NCBI GenBank assembly: GCA_018268915.1 | Contig: JAFDVQ010000018.1 | Location: 74,457 to 138,456, forward strand | Direction of reading: 5' to 3' | DNA: 64,000 nt | From: Acidobacteriota bacterium | Lineage (GTDB): Bacteria; Acidobacteriota; Terriglobia; Terriglobales; Acidobacteriaceae | Shown here: one piece after another, positions 1 through 7,965 of the stretch | Layout of the letters: each line of letters begins with the position of its first letter | Position numbering within the stretch: position 1 is the first letter of the stretch | Program-made: the position numbers and the translations under genes | Notes under the pieces: model-generated | Seen by the model: the letters and a program-made list of their open reading frames with translations, nothing else | Told to the model about the DNA's origin: nothing | Databases searched by the model: none

Positions 1-1
1 G

Positions 2-199
2 CTCGTCTCAGCGACCAGTGTGCAGGCGAGGATCAGAGCGCTCGATTTGCCGTCGGCCAAAGCCCTGTTTGCCATGACACTGGCCGTGACTGTCGCAGGT
101 AATGAATACCTGATTGAGTCCGTCGCGGCGAACGAAGCCTTCGGCAAGGTTTATCTATATCGGCTTACACTTCGCGAAGTGCACGCACAATCTCTGTAA
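2..199 (+). CDS. 5'-truncated hypothetical protein, possibly phage head-closure/head-tail adaptor-like
   Basis: Frame 2 is open from base 2 to TAA 197-199 (...ALFAMTLAVTVAGNEYLIESVAANEAFGKVYLYRLTLREVHAQSL). It is not in the ORF track because the start lies outside the window. The terminal beta-strand pattern (YxIxxV...YxLxL) and the position ahead of tail-like genes fit a head-closure protein (inference). Confidence 0.5.
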   Translation, partial: LVSATSVQARIRALDLPSAKALFAMTLAVTVAGNEYLIESVAANEAFGKVYLYRLTLREVHAQSL

Positions 200-299
200 A
201 TACCGGATTCTATTCGAGAGACTTTTGGAAGAGTGGAGGAAACAGGCTGATCGAAAAGCTATGTCGCAAGGCTCTATGCCGATCGCCTTTCTCTGATTT

Positions 300-788
300 A
301 TGCAAAATGCAAAAGATTCCTTTTACCTGGCCCTTCGCATGAGGCTTGCGTCACTGAATCCGGAGCGCACTGTGCTGCTGCGTGGAACGCTGCGTCCCGG
401 AATCTTGATTGAAGAGGCCGAGGCGCCATTCGCCCAGCCTCCAGCTGATGTGTTTATGCTTCGCTGGCTTGGGCTTGCGGCGGACGCAGAACTCTCCTCG
501 GCCATGATTGCGATGGAGTGCGAGATTTCGTACAGCACATCGGGATCGCAGGCATTCGGAGGACTGGACCGCGGGAGGTCGCTGACCAGGATGGATCGAG
601 AGCTGCTCGAAATTCTGGAACCTTCCACGACGGCCAAGTTGGACTACTCAGTTCAACCTCCGGCGCCAATGCAAACTCAGGTTTTCTGGGATGAGCCGTC
701 CTTCACAGCTGCTACGACACAACGCGAGCGACTCAGCCGCACAGTTCGCGTGGCTGTCTACAGCTACGAGGAGCAGAGCGAACAATGA
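300..788 (+). CDS. Hypothetical protein, putative tail terminator-like
   Basis: 162-aa ORF whose stop overlaps the next start (ATGA at 785-788). Size and position directly before the tube-like gene fit the gpU/gp17 class (inference). Confidence 0.5.
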   Translation: MQNAKDSFYLALRMRLASLNPERTVLLRGTLRPGILIEEAEAPFAQPPADVFMLRWLGLAADAELSSAMIAMECEISYSTSGSQAFGGLDRGRSLTRMDRELLEILEPSTTAKLDYSVQPPAPMQTQVFWDEPSFTAATTQRERLSRTVRVAVYSYEEQSEQ

Positions 789-1738
789 CGTCTACCTCAT
801 TCGCAGCACCCGCGCCAACTACACGAAGAGTACGAGCCTACTTCGCTCCTGTCGAGCGAGCTACGCAGGCGTATGTACGTTTTTATCCAGCACAGATGAA
901 CACCTTCGATCTCGATGCGCCGCCAGCGCCATGGATCGACCTTGGATGGATCGAGAACTTCGGGCGGACGGCGACTAGCAAGTCTGCACCCATCCTCACC
1001 GGTATTCCCGCCGCCACACTCGAACAGACGCGCAATACACTCGAGGCACATCTCTCTTTCGATTTCCTGAGCTGGACCAAGTTGACGATGGCGCTTGGGA
1101 CCGGTTCGCAGCACATGAACGTGCTGGCAGGCTCGGATGGCGTTTCTGCAGAACCTGCAGTCAGCGTACAGAACGGGTCGACGGCATCCATGGTTCAACT
1201 TGCTGCAGGCGATGCATCAAGATTCGGACCTGGATCGATGATTGCGGTCGATGCGGACTATGCGGGACAGACAGGGTTCGTCGGTTCGCCTGTATCCGGG
1301 GCCTTCCTACGGCAGGCACTTACAGACCCCGATTACATCCGACGTATCACTTTCAACGTCGGTCTCGTGCTTGGCGTAAGCTCTGGAAGCCTGATACTCG
1401 CCCAACCTCTTCCGGGCGGCGTACCTCGGGCAGACGCAAAGGTACAGTCAATTACGGGCTTTGTTGACCGTGAGGGCGGCAGTTTTCATCAGGAATGGTC
1501 AGGTCTGTTTGTGATGGAGGGGAGTCAGGGCGATCGGATCTTCTTGCACTATCCTCGCCTGCAAAGCATGTCTTCCGCAGAGGAATCATCGGTTCCCCTC
1601 GACAGCCGGCATAAGGGCGGAATAAGTCGAATCCTGCTGAAAGGCCAGTTCCGAGCGCTTCCTGTCGACGATCCAATCGATGGCGAGCGGGTTCTGTGCT
1701 ATCGCAGTTTCAAACCCGCAGCTTATGCGCTGATCTAG
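785..1738 (+). CDS. Putative phage major tail tube-like protein with an inserted domain
   Basis: 317 aa. The N-terminal RVRAYFAP...WIDLGWIENF and C-terminal beta-rich segments recall tail tube proteins. Translationally coupled to the upstream gene. Confidence 0.5.
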   Translation: MTSTSFAAPAPTTRRVRAYFAPVERATQAYVRFYPAQMNTFDLDAPPAPWIDLGWIENFGRTATSKSAPILTGIPAATLEQTRNTLEAHLSFDFLSWTKLTMALGTGSQHMNVLAGSDGVSAEPAVSVQNGSTASMVQLAAGDASRFGPGSMIAVDADYAGQTGFVGSPVSGAFLRQALTDPDYIRRITFNVGLVLGVSSGSLILAQPLPGGVPRADAKVQSITGFVDREGGSFHQEWSGLFVMEGSQGDRIFLHYPRLQSMSSAEESSVPLDSRHKGGISRILLKGQFRALPVDDPIDGERVLCYRSFKPAAYALI

Positions 1739-1792
1739 CAGGCTCACCGCCAGTTGGGCTTCGGCTCTTGAAATCAACTCCGGGAAATCACG

Positions 1793-4105
1793 ATGAAGAT
1801 CACGATTGACGGGCAGGACTACACCTTCGCTCTTGACGCGGCACATCCATTAACAATCAAAAGAAAGCTCAATGAGCCTTCCGTGTGCAGACTGTGGATT
1901 ACAACTCCGGCAAGAGAACGGGTTGCTCTCGCGCGTAACCAAGCTTTGCGCATCGCAGGCGACGATGGCAGTTGTTACTTCACTGGCTATGTTGCTGCGA
2001 CGCCCATGCCGGAGTACGCAGGGCTTGGGGTGGAAGGGCCTCGATACCGAATGTCGGTCGAAGCCGTGAGCGACGAATGCCTTCTCGACCAGGCCGGCGC
2101 GGCACCGTGGAAGGCGTCACCCGCCATGGCTGCAGGAACGGCGATCGCTGCGCTGGTTGCAAAGACAGGGATGATTGCTCTTTCAACTAGCGAGCTTTCT
2201 CTAGAGGCGCCTGTCTCAGCTGAATCGGCGCAAAACAGCTCAGCGTTTACCGTTGCCGCCGCGTCTATTGCAAGTCAGGCGCGTGCTGCATACCGGGCCA
2301 TGAATGGAGTAGTAGAACTTACGGCGATGCCGAGTGTGGTGCATTGGTTGAATGAGGCCGACGGAAGCCTTTCTCTTGAGAATCTAACCTTGACCGCGGG
2401 GGCACGCCGTGCTTTAGCGAATGACATTACAGTGTGCGGGGAACGCGAACCCACCAGCTACGTGACGGAGTACTTCCTCGGCGACGGGGTCACAACGCAG
2501 TTCTACCTTTCAGATCGGGTCTTTGCTCCTACGACAGACAAATCGACTCTTATTCGCGAGCTCTTCAACGAAGGCCACATCGACCAGCGGGTATGGGGCA
2601 ACTCTGGCCGACCGGGCTATCTGACGCTGGGCGCCGGCGGGCTGACGATGCAGGGCGGGAACGGCAGAGATGGTGAAACGCTCCTGGGATGGCTGGACCC
2701 TGTCGAGATGGGTGGAACGCTCCTGCTGGAGGCAACAGGAGTTACGCTTGCGAACGGAAGCAGCGGCGTTCTCGCAGGATTTTTTACGGGCGATAATCTG
2801 CAATCCGCTTGCACCGCGGGATTCAAGGTAACGGCGGAGCAGGGCACCGGTGATGTTTCGATTCAGCCCCTGGTGCTTGGAGTCACTGCCGGTGCTTCGT
2901 ATATGGTAAGCCCGTCGAAGCAGTACGCACTGCGGGCTCGCGTCCACTGCCCGGAGGTCTACCGCAGCACATCCATATACCGGACCATCGATGATTTCGG
3001 CGCCGTAGCGACTGGCGGGGAGCTTATTGCGGCTCCAGCGAATCTCCAGCTTGAGATTCAGGAATTTGTGAATGGCGTCGCGGGGATGCCTGTAACTCTC
3101 TTCGAGGGCACAATCGCAAATCTGCCCGCCTCATGCACAGTAGTCGCCGCAAGCAGCATCAATCTTGATGGATCGATGCGCGCATTTCATCTCACGAATC
3201 TGGGATCGGGATGGGTTTCCGCAACTCCATCAAACGGCAGTCCGGTAACGCGCCGTACAGGCTATTCGACACAGGCAGCCGAGTGCCTTGTGGAGAGCTC
3301 CGGCCGCGTGGTGTTCTATCCGGGATTCGCTCCAGCAATGGGAGAGCAAATTGCCGTCAGCTACAGGACCGTGGGCAGGGCAATTGGAAGGAATGTCAAC
3401 GCCGAAAGCCAGCAGCAGCTCGCCGCGTCCTGTCTGCCGCCGGTTTCAGTTTGGGTCGGGAGCGTTACGAATCCTCCGTCACGCTGTTCGCAGGATTGCA
3501 GGAACGCAGCATCTGCGCTTGTGAATGCTGCCGCGAGCGTGACTGCGCTCTGGAGCGGCACTTACAAATGCATGAGCGGAGATCTCAATTCCGACGTGTG
3601 GCCTGGAGATGCGCTTGCATTCAACGCGCCGCCGACTGGAGTCACTGCGCAGATGATCGTCCGCAACGTTAAGCTGACCTACCACGCGAGTCTGCCGGAT
3701 GTCGTATGCTACGAAATCGAGTTTGCAAATGACTGGGCCGAAGATCTCGCAATCAAGACGAGTTCCGAAGTACCGGCAGATGCATGGCTGCCTACGCCTG
3801 CGGGCACAACCAACCTGGCGAATCTCAGTGGACTCACTGTTACGAACGTGAGCGGGCAATCGGTCACAATCAATGCCGGCACGACTGCTCCTGCTGGGGG
3901 TGGATTCGAGGTTCGACGTCGCGACAACTGCTTCCTGCCGGGATCAGATGCCGACTTGGTAATGCGCACCTCGCAACCTATCATGACTCTTTCGCGCTTC
4001 GCAGCAGGGGACCGCTTTTACATCAGGGCTTTCGATGGATCAAATCCACCCAACTACTCGGAATTCTCAGCAGCGCTTATCTTTAACCTTCCGCTTGCTG
4101 TGTAA
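1793..4105 (+). CDS. Putative phage tail tip/baseplate hub-host specificity protein
   Basis: 770 aa, beta-rich. The N-terminus MKITIDGQDYT...LTIKRKLNEPS...YFTGYV is hub-like, the central region is a Gly-rich beta-sandwich, and the C-terminus is FN3-like (FEVRRRD...FYIRAFDGSNPPNYS). Confidence 0.55.
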   Translation: MKITIDGQDYTFALDAAHPLTIKRKLNEPSVCRLWITTPARERVALARNQALRIAGDDGSCYFTGYVAATPMPEYAGLGVEGPRYRMSVEAVSDECLLDQAGAAPWKASPAMAAGTAIAALVAKTGMIALSTSELSLEAPVSAESAQNSSAFTVAAASIASQARAAYRAMNGVVELTAMPSVVHWLNEADGSLSLENLTLTAGARRALANDITVCGEREPTSYVTEYFLGDGVTTQFYLSDRVFAPTTDKSTLIRELFNEGHIDQRVWGNSGRPGYLTLGAGGLTMQGGNGRDGETLLGWLDPVEMGGTLLLEATGVTLANGSSGVLAGFFTGDNLQSACTAGFKVTAEQGTGDVSIQPLVLGVTAGASYMVSPSKQYALRARVHCPEVYRSTSIYRTIDDFGAVATGGELIAAPANLQLEIQEFVNGVAGMPVTLFEGTIANLPASCTVVAASSINLDGSMRAFHLTNLGSGWVSATPSNGSPVTRRTGYSTQAAECLVESSGRVVFYPGFAPAMGEQIAVSYRTVGRAIGRNVNAESQQQLAASCLPPVSVWVGSVTNPPSRCSQDCRNAASALVNAAASVTALWSGTYKCMSGDLNSDVWPGDALAFNAPPTGVTAQMIVRNVKLTYHASLPDVVCYEIEFANDWAEDLAIKTSSEVPADAWLPTPAGTTNLANLSGLTVTNVSGQSVTINAGTTAPAGGGFEVRRRDNCFLPGSDADLVMRTSQPIMTLSRFAAGDRFYIRAFDGSNPPNYSEFSAALIFNLPLAV

Positions 4106-4128
4106 CTGGCAGCAGAAAACAAAAATCG

Positions 4129-4356
4129 ATGCGAATGATCAATGAATTCGAAGCACAGGTCTTAAGCGACTTGAATGTCTTGAAGTCGCAGATGAACGCG
4201 CTCACCGGCGATGGCAATGGCGGTCGCATTGCAGATCTCGAGCACCGGATGGAGGAGCACGAGCAGAACTGGGAACGAGCCAAGGGATTTCTAGCGGCGT
4301 TCAGCATATTGCTCACGGTGGTCGAGGTTGCGGTGCAGGCTTGGCACCGGCATTAG
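4129..4356 (+). CDS. Small coiled-coil protein with a C-terminal TM helix (holin/XhlA-like)
   Basis: 75 aa with heptad-like N-terminal segments and a hydrophobic C-terminus (GFLAAFSILLTVVEVAV). Last gene of the phage-like module. Confidence 0.6.
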   Translation: MRMINEFEAQVLSDLNVLKSQMNALTGDGNGGRIADLEHRMEEHEQNWERAKGFLAAFSILLTVVEVAVQAWHRH

Positions 4357-4407
4357 CCAATTTGGCGCGTCGCCAGGTGGGCTCGCGAAAGTCCGGCGAA
4401 CGCCTCT

Positions 4408-4413
4408 TATAAT
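4408..4413 (+). promoter_or_regulatory. -10 box of a probable leaderless purE promoter
   Basis: Perfect TATAAT followed by 6 nt (CACCCC) and then the purE ATG. No Shine-Dalgarno in between. Confidence 0.6.
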
Positions 4414-4419
4414 CACCCC

Positions 4420-4908
4420 ATGAGCAACAAGCCGATAGTTGGCGTGGTGATGGGCTCGAAGAGCGACTACGAAGTGCTCTCAGCGGCCGTCGAGATTCTG
4501 CACGCCCTCGAGATTTCGCATGAAGCGCGGGTAGTCAGCGCGCATCGCACGCCCGACTGGCTCTTCAAATATGCTGAGACCGCGCGGGAGCGCGGATTGC
4601 GCGTGATCATCGCCGGCGCTGGGGGTGCGGCCCACCTCCCGGGAATGCTTGCGTCGAAGACTCTCGTGCCGGTGCTCGGCGTTCCAGTTCCAGCAACGTT
4701 GCTAAACGGTCTCGATTCCCTGCTCTCCATCGTGCAGATGCCAAAAGGAGTTCCGGTCGGAACCCTCGCGATCGGCAAGCCGGGTGCGGCGAATGCTGCG
4801 ATTCTGGCCGCTGAGATTCTGGCGACTGATGACGCGGCTCTCTACGAACGGCTGGCTACCTGGCGCAAAGCGCGAACCGACGAAGTAATGACGCAGGAGC
4901 TTCCCTAG
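4420..4908 (+). CDS. purE: N5-carboxyaminoimidazole ribonucleotide mutase
   Basis: [27 protein letters not shown] and [11 protein letters not shown] signature motifs. Confidence 0.98.
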
Positions 4909-6077
4909 TGCCGGATAATCCAATCCCTGTCATTGAACCAGGCGGTATGATCGGCATTCTCGGCGGCGGGCAGCTCGGCCGCATGACCGCGATGGCCGCG
5001 CGCACCATGGGCTATCGCGTGCGCGTCATGGATCCAGAAGGAAAGTGCCCCGCCAGTTTTGTCGTAGACGAGACCATTGTTGGCGCATGGGATGACGTTG
5101 CGGCAGCGCAGAAGCTTGCTCGTGGTGCAGATGCGTTGACCCTGGAGATTGAACAAATCGGTGTCGATGCGTTGAAGCAGGTTGCTCAACTTGCGCCCCT
5201 GCGTCCTGGCGTCGAGCCTGTTCGCATCATTCAGGACAAAACGCTGCAAAAGGCGTGGCTCGCTGAAAATGGATTTCCCGTCGGGCCGTTTCGCGTAGTC
5301 CGCAGCGAAGCAGAACTGCATGAAGCCGTCGAGTCCCTGGGCGGACGGGTGTTTCTCAAGATCGGGCGGGGCGGCTACGATGGCCGCGGACAGGTACGTC
5401 TCGGCATTGAATCGCCGCTCACCGAGCAATCAATTAAAGATGCATGGACGAGCCTTGGTGGCAAACCTGCTGTTGCCGAACAGGCACTCTATCTGGCGCA
5501 TGAGGTCAGCGTGATGGCCGCACGCACGCCGTCAGGAGAAGTGCGTAGCTTTCCCGCCGCACGCAATCACCACGAGAACCAGATTCTCGCATGGAGCGTT
5601 CTGCCCGCAGGCATGAGCCCGGAACTTGAAGCCAAGGCCGAGAAACTCGCAGCCGACATCATCGCTAGACTTGGGATCGAAGGCCTGCTCTGCGTGGAGA
5701 TGTTCATCACCAAGCAGGGGCGGTTGCTTGTGAATGAAATGGCGCCCCGCCCGCACAACAGTTACCACCAGAGCGAGCGCGGATGCGTGACGAGCCAGTT
5801 CGAGCAGCTGGTGCGAACCACGTGCAACCTGCCGCTCGGCGAGACGTCGCTCATCACCCCGTGCGCCATTGTGAATCTGCTTGGTGAAGTCTGGCTGACG
5901 TCAACGCCAAATTTTCAAGCAGCACTCAGCATTCCCGGAGTGCGTTTGCATCTCTACGAAAAGCGTGGCGCCAAGAAAGGCCGGAAGATGGGACATCTTT
6001 CCTCCGTGGGAGCGACGGCAGAAGAGGCTCTGGAGCGAGTGCTCGAGGCGAAAAAACGGATGCTGGGCGAGAGCTAG
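4908..6077 (+). CDS. purK: N5-carboxyaminoimidazole ribonucleotide synthase (ATP-grasp)
   Basis: IGILGGGQLGRM, GYDGRGQ, NEMAPRPHNS and GRKMGH motifs. The GTG start overlaps the purE TAG by 1 nt. Confidence 0.97.
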   Translation: MPDNPIPVIEPGGMIGILGGGQLGRMTAMAARTMGYRVRVMDPEGKCPASFVVDETIVGAWDDVAAAQKLARGADALTLEIEQIGVDALKQVAQLAPLRPGVEPVRIIQDKTLQKAWLAENGFPVGPFRVVRSEAELHEAVESLGGRVFLKIGRGGYDGRGQVRLGIESPLTEQSIKDAWTSLGGKPAVAEQALYLAHEVSVMAARTPSGEVRSFPAARNHHENQILAWSVLPAGMSPELEAKAEKLAADIIARLGIEGLLCVEMFITKQGRLLVNEMAPRPHNSYHQSERGCVTSQFEQLVRTTCNLPLGETSLITPCAIVNLLGEVWLTSTPNFQAALSIPGVRLHLYEKRGAKKGRKMGHLSSVGATAEEALERVLEAKKRMLGES

Positions 6078-6084
6078 GTTTTTG

Positions 6085-6116
6085 CCCACGTCTCAAGATC
6101 GAGACGTGGGGTACCC
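6085..6116 (-). repeat. REP-like palindrome, subfamily A
   Basis: The minus strand reads GGGTAC-CCCACGTCTC-GATCTT-GAGACGTGGG (10-bp perfect stem). Lies between convergent purK and typA. Confidence 0.8.
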
Positions 6117-6138
6117 GAGCATGAACGGTCCAGGCCAG

Positions 6139-7965
6139 TTATGCGCTGAACTGTTCCGCCTTCTCCCAGCGCTTGGGTCTGCGATTGGCTTGCAGAATCT
6201 TCTTTCGCAGCCTAAGCGACTTGGGCGTGATCTCCACGAGTTCATCATCGGCGATAAATTCGATGGCCTGCTCCAGGTTCAGAGTTCTATAGGGCACCAA
6301 GCGGAGCGCCTCGTCAGCGCTCGATGCGCGCATGTTGGTCAACTTCTTCTCGCGAACAACATTCACGTCGAGGTCGTTGTCGCGCGAGTGCTCGCCTACA
6401 ACCATTCCCTCGTAAACATCTACGCCTGCGCCGAGAAACAGGATCCCGCGCTCCTGCAATCCATTCAGAGAATAGGTGGTCGTCAGTCCCTGGCGATCGG
6501 CAATCAAAGCGCCTGTGGGCCTCTGCGGAATCTCGCCCTGATACGGAATGTATCCGTCGAAGAGCGAATTCATGACGATGGTTCCACGCGTTTCGGTCAG
6601 CATCTCACTGCGCAGTCCGATGAGCCCACGGCTGGGTACGCGGAACTCAAGACGCACGCGGCCTGAGCCGTGGTTGTGCATCTTCGTCATTTCGCCTTTA
6701 CGTGGTCCAAGCTTTTCGATCACCACTCCGGTGTACTGTTCGGGAATATCGATGGTGAGGTGCTCAACCGGCTCCATACGCGTGCCATCGACTACCTTGG
6801 TGACAATCTCAGGCCGTCCAGCCATGAGCTCAAAGCCTTCGCGTCGCATCATCTCGATGAGAATTGCAAGCTGAAGCTCGCCCCGGCCAAGCACTTTGAA
6901 AGTATCGGGAGAGCCCGTTTCTTCCACGCGAATCGAGACGTTGGTCAGCAGCTCCTTCTCGAGGCGCTCGCGCAGGTTGCGGCTCGTTACATACTGCCCT
7001 TCCCTGCCCGCGAACGGTGAGTTGTTGACGCTGAACTGGATGGCAATTGTAGGTTCGTCGATAACAATCAGCGGGAGAGGATCGGGCGTCTCGATCGAAG
7101 TGATAGTCTCGCCGATCGTGATTCCCTCTACGCCGGCGACGGCGACGATGTCACCCATCACCGTCTCAGTCATCTCAATTCTCTTCAGACCAGAGAACGT
7201 GAACAGTTTGGTAATCTTCGTCTTCTGCAGGGACCCGTCGCGCTTTGAGATGTTCACTTCATCGCCCGCGTGCAGTGTGCCTTGAAATACGCGGCAGATA
7301 GCGATGCGTCCGAAGTACTCGGAGTAGTCGAGATTCGTCACAAGGATCTGCAGCGCAGCCTCAGCATCTCCCGTTGCCGCGGGAATGGTTGACACGATCG
7401 TCTCGAACAGCGGCTGAAGGTTCTCACCCGGCTTAGCCAGGTCGAGAGTGGCGGTTCCGGCCTTGGCGACGGCATAGAGCACAGGAAAATCCAGCTGCGA
7501 TTCCTCCGCGTCGAGATCAATGAAGAGATCGTAGATCTCGTTCAGCACTTCCTGAGGCCGAGCATCCGGACGGTCGATCTTGTTGATTACCACGATGGGC
7601 GCGAGCTTTGCTTCCAGCGCCTTGGCCAGCACATAACGCGTCTGCGGCAGCGGGCCTTCGGCTGCATCCACCAGCAGCATGACTCCATCCACCATCTTCA
7701 GCGCGCGCTCAACTTCGCCGCCAAAGTCGGCGTGGCCCGGGGTATCAACGATATTGATCTTGCCTCCGCCGTAGTTCACGGCAGTGTTTTTGGCGAGAAT
7801 AGTGATGCCGCGCTCCCGTTCCAGTTCGTTTGAGTCCATCACGCGCTCGGCAACCTGCTCGTTGGCGCGGAATGTGCCCGATTGCCGCAGCATGGCGTCA
7901 ACTAGAGTGGTCTTGCCGTGGTCGACATGGGCGATGATGGCGATATTGCGTATCGTCTGGCTCAC
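6139..7965 (-). CDS. typA: Translational GTPase TypA/BipA
   Basis: [38 protein letters not shown] and C-terminal [10 protein letters not shown]...[13 protein letters not shown]. Confidence 0.98.

Follow-up and report, generated by a model that had tools for sequence, protein, structure and literature searches.

A phage-derived head, tail and fibre gene cluster fixed beside purE in Acidobacteriaceae, a candidate host-domesticated viriform

Does a run of phage-like genes lying directly against purE mark the end of a prophage, or does it belong to a particle system that the host has made its own? The question is raised by a 64,000-nucleotide stretch of DNA from an acidobacterial genome (assembly GCA_018268915.1, contig JAFDVQ010000018.1; the whole stretch is referred to as the window), of which positions 1-4356 are part of the element discussed here. 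An earlier interpretation made from the letters alone (the sequence-only reading) had described five co-oriented open reading frames (ORFs) at these positions and proposed that they are the end of a domesticated phage-derived system, either gene transfer agent (GTA)-like or tailocin-like. We are highly confident that the element is a host-fixed, selected, phage-derived cluster. On balance, and with modest confidence, its genes suggest a host-domesticated viriform, inherited vertically in Acidobacteriaceae, that would make DNA-packaging particles acting like a GTA or like PBSX of Bacillus. The window holds one gene 3' end and four complete genes of the element, co-oriented as described and all on the plus strand, followed by host genes:

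1-199, plus strand: 3' end (last 65 codons) of p144, an ORF running off the left edge
300-788, plus strand: w162, a 162-amino-acid (aa) candidate connector protein, directly 5' of the tube-like gene
785-1738, plus strand: w317, a 317-aa protein, probably the major tail (tube) protein, judged from neighbour context in locus L107
1793-4105, plus strand: w770, a 770-aa predicted tail hub or tail-tip protein, from profile and model matches
4129-4356, plus strand: w75, a 75-aa predicted tail-anchored membrane protein and last gene of the element, from conservation and hydropathy
4357-4419, plus strand: spacer of 63 bp forming the right border of the element, with a conserved TATAAT at 4408-4413
4420-4908, plus strand: purE, host flank outside the element (PF00731, E 1e-60)
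4908-6077, plus strand: purK, host flank outside the element (PF02222, PF22660, PF17769)
6139-7965, opposite strand to purE-purK: bipA/typA, host gene

The length of the spacer agrees with the 63 bp first reported. None of the five window proteins gave a significant match in scans of Pfam, PHROGs, NCBIfam or PADLOC, and an exact-sequence look-up of the window's proteins returned no record. Since no direct family-library match was available, the ORF labels of the sequence-only reading were guesses. Its statement that the frames are intact was borne out, as relatives, fixed lengths and the ratio of non-synonymous to synonymous substitution rates (dN/dS, by the Nei-Gojobori method) identify real genes. 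More than 1,600 relatives were found for w770, the best 120 sharing 61-79% identity and nearly all being 767-775 aa long, and more than 6,000 for w317 (356 representatives at 50% clustering). Order and length of the five genes are constant in 59-70 independent loci, with dN/dS of 0.08-0.12. The truncated first ORF encodes the last 65 aa of a protein that is conserved and 144 aa long, with 71% identity to the Telmatobacter copy (L001:8007-8441, E 2e-33).

Orthologous loci were examined in Telmatobacter sp. DSM 110680, a complete genome, and in three large metagenomic contigs. In the Telmatobacter genome (CP121196) the cluster occupies approximately 1,450,600-1,469,200 of the reverse strand, with the fibre as P8935_05940 and the hub as P8935_05880. 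A portal scan of one genome per GTDB species gave at least 563 confirmed matches; the best 80, all labelled Acidobacteriaceae, Terracidiphilus, Terriglobales or Acidobacteriota, supplied further loci. In orthologous loci the complete element comprises 15 genes over ~18.6 kb, and the window genes form its 3' end. A co-oriented block in Telmatobacter and the three contigs encodes, in order, a 509-aa protein, a HipA_2 kinase, a DUF3037 protein, a Phage_portal protein and proteins of 166, 130, 322, 207, 144, 161, 323, 770 and 73-75 aa, and is followed by purE-purK-bipA. The order of the whole element is:

Gene 1: small basic ORF, small-terminase (TerS)-like
Gene 2: giant fibre
Gene 3: large terminase (TerL), 509 aa (phrog_2, E 5e-24; weak lambda gpA-ATPase match)
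Gene 4: HipA-like (HipA_2) kinase
Gene 5: DUF3037 partner (genes 4 and 5 at L001 1811-3573 and L131 17378-19140, between TerL and portal; PF20613, PF11236)
Gene 6: portal, 421 aa (PF04860, E 1e-51)
Gene 7: p166, protease-like
Gene 8: p130, scaffold-like
Gene 9: p322, putative major capsid protein
Gene 10: p207, head-tail adaptor, 207 aa (phrog_442, E 7e-15)
Gene 11: p144, candidate connector
Gene 12: w162, candidate connector
Gene 13: w317, tube-like
Gene 14: w770, predicted hub
Gene 15: w75, predicted membrane protein

What had been called a tail module is more than a tail alone, being the end of a head, tail and fibre cluster that has no tape-measure gene. The expectation of terminase, portal and capsid genes upstream, with no integrase or replication genes, proved correct in the orthologous loci, where TerL, portal, putative capsid and adaptor genes were found. 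Because head and packaging genes are present, the element is not a tailocin; the portal, TerL and putative capsid are conserved in the cluster and exclude that half of the original proposal. Alignments of TerL show an invariant K-A-R-Q-x-G-x-T motif together with the acidic motifs D-P-A-G-G-G, E-x-N-N-H-G and D-D, which we take to be the ATPase and nuclease centres. The site between portal and capsid genes is the classic position of a protease and scaffold. In the acidobacterial element it is held by the separate genes p166 and p130, whose homologues in distant phage-like contigs form one fused protein of 334-353 aa between portal and p322 (L119 10584-11630; L124 11324-12328; and relatives). 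Because p166 and p130 hold the protease-scaffold position before it, p322 is likely the capsid protein. The block of portal, p166 plus p130, p322 and adaptor is common to long-tailed phage-like contigs, with p322 profile matches of E 1e-50 to 1e-101.

The giant fibre ORF (1,700-3,000 aa) carries tail-fibre-type N-terminal repeats and 'AKGDGxTDD'-type beta-helix signatures, and many of its homologues carry PF12708 or bear the source names 'GH28-related' or 'pectate lyase superfamily'. The fibre combines a conserved N-terminus with a variable C-terminus (30-50% identity between loci), a pattern as expected for a receptor-binding depolymerase; a fibre or tailspike with pectate-lyase/GH28-like domains is therefore what these signatures would predict. 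The small basic ORF found 5' of the fibre gene (114-132 aa) is conserved in 10 or more loci. Its copy in L065 lies directly 5' of TerL (5833-6177), as opposed to 5' of the fibre gene in L131 (9518-9862), and it is on account of the L065 position that it is considered a small-terminase candidate. Ten metagenomic terminase loci have no fibre gene upstream. These loci and the L065 arrangement indicate that the fibre gene does not have a constant place in the element.

Host genes bound the element on both sides. On the left, GH31-Maf-asparaginase is conserved in two genera; on the right, purE-purK-bipA adjoins the element in nearly every locus with enough sequence. Gene lists of the whole element from asparaginase to purE were made for Telmatobacter and one second genus. 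Between these two flanks neither contains an integrase, a repressor or a replication gene, and neither list contains an excisionase or a primase/replicase. No tRNA and no Rfam family was found in the whole window, and the two junctions of the Telmatobacter element have no direct repeat of at least 10 bp in common. The gene lists, tRNA scan and junction repeat test thus uphold the earlier observation that integrase, att-type repeat and tRNA are absent from this border. The GC content of positions 1-4356 is 0.570, compared with 0.575 in the rest of the window, and the element is fully ameliorated in this respect. An integrated temperate prophage was rejected, as there are no integrase, att repeats or regulatory, replication or lysis modules and the same site is occupied in 80 species-level genomes. 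The class of capsid-forming phage-inducible chromosomal islands (cf-PICIs) and similar satellites was likewise rejected, as integrase and replication genes are lacking and tube-like, hub and fibre genes are present. With no integrase, att site or replication gene, and being fixed and ameliorated, the element is neither prophage nor satellite.

The spacer before purE had been described as largely taken up by the purE promoter. A perfect TATAAT (4408-4413) lies six bases 5' of the purE ATG, and the hexamer occurs within 30 nucleotides before purE in 57 of 58 loci; the remainder of the spacer varies in sequence and in length (23-194 bp among loci). A generic sigma-70 promoter scan returned nothing in the spacer, the hexamer being missed because no -35 match accompanies it. 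The promoter claim is therefore upheld by the conserved motif and not by the generic scan. Conservation of TATAAT suggests that purE-purK is probably transcribed from its own leaderless promoter, which would place the end of the element at the w75 stop codon.

Wherever sequence exists, the best 80 of the at least 563 species-level portal matches agree in gene order from TerL to bipA, confirming synteny beside purE/purK across 80 species-level genomes. Across loci p322 is 80-97% identical, at or above the level of purE, and the portal 75-85%. Every element gene has a dN/dS of 0.07-0.15, in line with the housekeeping genes purE (0.094) and purK (0.107), and all 13 structural genes are intact and of conserved length in 59-82 loci spanning ~20-30% protein divergence. 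Distances between elements follow those of purE+purK (Mantel r 0.72-0.73, p<=5e-4), a congruence with the host obtained with markers that are linked to the element. The upstream genes, synteny, co-divergence and dN/dS together support the proposal of a vertically inherited, domesticated phage-derived system fixed beside core genes: a chromosomal caudoviral structural and packaging cluster that has no integration, replication or lysogeny modules, is inherited vertically and is under purifying selection. The same data bear on the view that the element is an inert ancient prophage remnant which has not yet decayed. The missing canonical modules (tape measure, lysis, regulation) could be read in this way, but 13 intact structural genes with dN/dS equal to that of purE/purK effectively refute it, and we put its chances close to nil; because of the selection data, the element is not a decaying remnant.

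Not all clusters are contiguous. Fourteen portal loci have no fibre and TerL genes within 10 kb; they group together by portal similarity, and their remaining genes have dN/dS of 0.08-0.14. A scan of metagenomes for TerL found ~15 fibre-TerL loci with no portal block after them, 7 of which adjoin imuA-imuB-dnaE2 (L203 9773-15745; also L171, L196, L197, L206, L207 and L208; several species) and are 76-92% identical to one another (imuA). As the separated genes are still under selection, they belong to the host genome rather than to a mobile prophage. It is conceivable that the neighbourhood of imuA-imuB-dnaE2, an SOS mutagenesis cassette, links the particle genes to the SOS regulon. A rearranged variant was observed in L094/L111 (IMG/VR contig 3300047494_000274), where the block from p166 to w317 has moved 5' of the fibre gene and the portal is followed by hub and w75, with all genes kept. 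Circular permutation was discarded as an explanation for this contig, as mapping shows block transposition within one linear contig.

The splitting also bears on the proposal of a helper-dependent satellite, or a defective temperate phage with a preferred site near purE, to which a helper would give tape measure, chaperones and lysis functions. Tape measure, chaperone and endolysin genes are indeed missing from the cluster, head genes are known in capsid-forming satellites, and viral-detection pipelines placed these regions in IMG/VR. We nevertheless consider such a satellite very unlikely: it would have to do without integrase, excisionase, primase/replicase and att repeat, its flanks are conserved on both sides across genera and its GC content is ameliorated, it co-diverges with host genes, it is split over two loci in one subclade, and, unlike capsid-forming PICIs, it has its own tube, hub and fibre genes.

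Of the tail genes, w770 could be assigned most firmly. Its profile matches gp15 of Tunturi_4 (E 5e-49, profile positions 59-758), a 1,319-aa virion structural protein encoded just 3' of the tape measure. Tunturi_4 is a plaque-forming siphophage of Tunturiibacter (PMC11924767). An AlphaFold2 (AF2) model of w770 (predicted local distance difference test score, pLDDT, 66) was compared with the PDB by Foldseek and matched the MuSo2 43-kDa tail protein (3cdd), the phage Mu baseplate and the T5 tail tip; the hubs of contractile injection systems, antifeeding prophage (AFP), Photorhabdus virulence cassette (PVC), diffocin and type VI secretion system (T6SS) VgrG; and galectin and alginate-lyase jelly rolls. 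Against BFVD, 104 caudoviral matches were obtained at E<=1e-3, for example 'minor tail protein' and 'ConA-like lectin'. Because of the gp15 profile match and the Foldseek matches, the assignment of w770 as a tail hub or tip is well supported, with a predicted gp27/gpD/VgrG-like hub domain and a predicted carbohydrate-binding-type, lectin-like (ConA/galectin-type) beta-sandwich; the label 'tail tip' of the sequence-only reading holds. The dN/dS of w770 is 0.12. A podovirus T7-like nozzle had been considered for w770 and was dropped, as the model is a gp27/gpD-type hub and the profile matches a siphophage protein encoded after the tape measure.

The label 'tube-like' for w317 is moderately supported, by gene context and by two weak profile matches. 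A 369-aa homologue in L107, a 107-kb IMG/VR contig (profile E 1e-31, hhalign probability 99.6), is encoded 3' of connector genes and directly 5' of two chaperone-like ORFs and a tape-measure-like ORF of >1,373 aa. The w317 profile weakly matches gp9 of Tunturi_4, 'major tail protein' (E 0.028), and the distant relative P0317 weakly matches phrog_476, 'major tail protein' (E 0.014). With moderate confidence, w317 is probably a tube protein; its dN/dS is 0.119. PDB profile searches with w770, w317, w162 and p322, including broadened alignments for p322 and w317, gave chance matches only. In another protein, P0294 (1,266 aa), a stretch of ~170 residues at the N-terminus aligns with positions 61-232 of the w317 family and is fused to a PF12708 domain (pectate-lyase/rhamnogalacturonase, E 4e-12). 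This fusion appears to be a case of part of a tube-like protein being reused as a depolymerase anchor in another element, and is a reason not to read w317 simply as 'tube only'.

Between the adaptor and the tube-like gene lie just two genes, p144 and w162. The first gene 3' of the head-tail adaptor is p144, which occupies the same position in 70 loci (127-156 aa; dN/dS 0.117) and gave no family or PDB match. For w162, 65-67 orthologues with a median length of 161 aa were found (dN/dS 0.117); it has no Pfam, PHROG, NCBIfam or PDB-profile match, and a comparison with the Tunturi_4 tail terminator gp8 was non-significant (E 0.012 in a 20-protein set). When p144, w162, p207, p322 and w317 were aligned by hhalign with individual proteins (connector, tube and capsid) from Tunturi_4, L107 and L124, only two already-known pairs scored. 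As hhalign gave no homology, p144 is named by its position, as a head-closure or stopper candidate, and so is w162, as a tail-terminator candidate. The last gene, w75, has 64 orthologues of 74-76 aa in which the N-terminal 15 residues are invariant, a single C-terminal hydrophobic segment (approximately residues 50-73) and a dN/dS of 0.081; it stays directly 3' of the hub gene also in the rearranged variant L111. It is possibly a holin or a regulator, the holin label resting on hydropathy and position.

The HipA-like kinase/DUF3037 pair keeps its place between TerL and portal also where portal identity is as low as 52-59%. Because it is kept in the most divergent versions, the pair is an old and integral component. 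It matches PADLOC PDC-M66A (E 6e-8) and PDC-M66B (E 8e-7), and relatives of the pair are a validated kinase toxin and neutralising partner in anti-phage defence (PMC13092281, PMC12548924). In the element the pair might regulate arrest of producer cells, act as an addiction module or serve in defence. On the last of these rests a further explanation, in which the pair (PDC-M66/HipAD) is the selected function of an anti-phage island and the structural genes are sensors, decoys or proteins interfering with phage assembly. The validated relatives and the constant place of the pair between TerL and portal would fit. However, four portal loci (L056, L059, L064 and L072) have no kinase pair and keep the structural genes under selection, decoys are not expected to show a uniform dN/dS of ~0.1 on 13 structural genes with fixed lengths and intact terminase motifs, and defence islands are usually variable and rarely fixed in a family. 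We regard this explanation as quite unlikely.

Under the viriform reading, particle assembly, packaged DNA, release and role are what we infer, as follows. A host signal would lead a subpopulation of cells to express the cluster. Procapsids would assemble on the portal with scaffold and protease, and the terminase would pump DNA into the heads, which adaptor and two connectors would close and join to a very short tail of tube plus hub. Exopolysaccharide of kin cells would be bound and cut by the giant depolymerase fibre together with the hub's lectin-like domain. Particles would exit by lysis, with w75 possibly helping. The net function would approximate that of a GTA or of PBSX: host-controlled particles that move DNA between kin, or kill.

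Gene content is the same for GTA and killer particle, and sequence alone cannot tell them apart. In a PBSX-type killer, adsorption would kill competing strains and DNA packaging would be incidental, with no gene delivery. The giant variable fibre resembles a strain-specific targeting device, and a toxin-type kinase pair is embedded in the cluster; on the other hand, no sheath, contractile or puncturing device is encoded in the cluster, the tail appears minimal, and the invariant catalytic motifs of the terminase suggest that DNA packaging itself is selected. We judge the killer particle to be unlikely. The bolder proposal, that Acidobacteriaceae carry an independently evolved GTA of their own, with a minimal tail lacking a tape measure, a giant exopolysaccharide-degrading fibre and production coupled to the kinase/DUF3037 pair, and that it moves chromosomal DNA between cells of a family that is among the most abundant in soil, is advanced tentatively, as a real possibility somewhat short of probable. 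If it is correct, such a GTA would probably be found in the wider Terriglobales too.

Several points weigh against the viriform reading. Tape-measure, tail-chaperone, distal-tail and endolysin genes are absent from the cluster according to the gene lists of two genera, and neither an ORF as large as a tape measure nor a pair of chaperone genes occurs anywhere in the cluster, including between w317 and w770. The long-tailed relatives L107 and L124 do have tape-measure-like and chaperone-like ORFs. Of a siphovirus-type tail module, the element has only the hub and the probable tube, and no route is known by which tube and hub assemble in the absence of a tape measure. The missing genes may be encoded at other loci, as the splitting of the cluster makes plausible; alternatively, the tail is perhaps vestigial or a one-ring stub. 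The role of p322 as a putative major capsid protein is likely from position, size and conservation and from a match to phrog_264, 'major head protein', which is itself weak (E 0.034, in 2 of the family's 17 members); p322 has no match in PDB or Pfam, a tblastn search of 50,697 phage genomes gave no match, and when the proteins of L124, a distant prophage-like locus, were scanned against PHROGs, its capsid homologue received no name. An AF2 model of w317 from a shallow alignment (71-83% identity to the query) reached a pLDDT of 36. The ~14 kb upstream are known from orthologous loci and lie outside this window, and the host markers that co-diverge with the element are linked to it. Finally, a search for sequencing runs matching the window returned one soil metagenome, with 12% of the sampled words, and no RNA run.

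To our knowledge, GTAs or viriforms have arisen independently in very few lineages, none of them from Acidobacteriota. Full-text literature searches found no GTA or domesticated particle system described in this phylum, which is a dominant and hard-to-manipulate one in soil. Traces of the element may be present in earlier work. Portal and terminase genes were counted in subdivision-1 genomes, with one portal in a strain without a predicted prophage (Eichorst et al. 2018, PMC5900883); a 'shared phage-like contig' of the Sphagnum 'core virome' was aligned to an Acidobacteriaceae genome, with a cryptic phage mentioned as a possibility (PMC12142844); and 'proviruses' were reported in Terriglobales (PMC11924767). 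At least 23 'viral genomes' in IMG/VR are copies of the host-fixed element, some with host flanks (loci L086-L114). If such deposited regions are fixed in the host, soil viromics counts too many acidobacterial proviruses and virus-host links. A family-wide particle system conserved like housekeeping genes would be a candidate route of gene exchange in soil and possibly a genetic tool. Its architecture poses mechanistic questions, namely how a tail is assembled when no tape measure is encoded, and what controls production in a cluster that contains a toxin-type kinase pair. With Telmatobacter sp. DSM 110680, which is cultured and has a complete genome with the full cluster, the question is directly testable.

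Comparison with known systems places the element among domesticated head-tail clusters. Of its phage relatives, Tunturi_4 (PP885687) has in gp15 a hub homologous to w770, and L107 and L117-L129 have in common with the element the block of portal, protease-scaffold, p322 and adaptor as well as the w317 tube-like gene. These relatives are genomes or contigs of 50-110 kb with tape-measure-like ORFs of >1,000 aa and chaperone-like ORFs, in contrast to the 15 genes of the element, and Tunturi_4, which is plaque-forming, further has an annotated endolysin and genes for nucleotide metabolism and DNA repair. Tailocins (R- and F-type pyocins and related systems) are likewise domesticated tail genes beside core genes, with a hub of gp27/gpD fold; they have no terminase, portal or capsid, whereas the acidobacterial element has all three classes and lacks sheath and tape measure. 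The cf-PICIs are likewise small clusters with their own terminase, portal, capsid and connector genes. They carry integrase, att sites and replication genes and are without tail genes; the element, conversely, is without integrase, att site and replication genes and has tube, hub and fibre genes. In the case of HipAD, DS-6 and PADLOC PDC-M66, the gene pair of kinase and DUF3037 is the same as in the element, which places the pair in this group; there it is a free-standing defence operon, here a constant internal part of a phage-particle cluster. PBSX is, like the element, phage-derived, chromosomally fixed, non-replicating and conserved in its host group, and makes DNA-containing particles that benefit the host. 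It differs in being myovirus-like and in carrying genes for a sheath, a tape measure, lysis and a repressor, all of which are absent from the acidobacterial element.

A close parallel is the Rhodobacter capsulatus GTA (RcGTA), the type of a GTA family in Alphaproteobacteria. No GTA-specific match was obtained when the window proteins were compared with Pfam and NCBIfam and ten proteins of the Telmatobacter cluster with Pfam, only the generic Phage_portal and terminase families being matched. As no RcGTA homology was detected and the phylum is different, domestication would have taken place independently here, and the architecture is unusual. RcGTA has a tape measure, chaperones, a distal-tail protein and a peptidase, which the acidobacterial element lacks; the latter, known from its genes alone, embeds the HipA-like kinase/DUF3037 pair. 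RcGTA reportedly (in a preprint on TspA) has a depolymerase tailspike or fibre, like the acidobacterial fibre. RcGTA is also a compact head-tail cluster of ~15 genes without integrase or replication genes, chromosomally fixed, inherited vertically under purifying selection and co-diverging with its host, and its multi-locus organisation, with parts at separate loci in some lineages, is mirrored by the split acidobacterial cluster.

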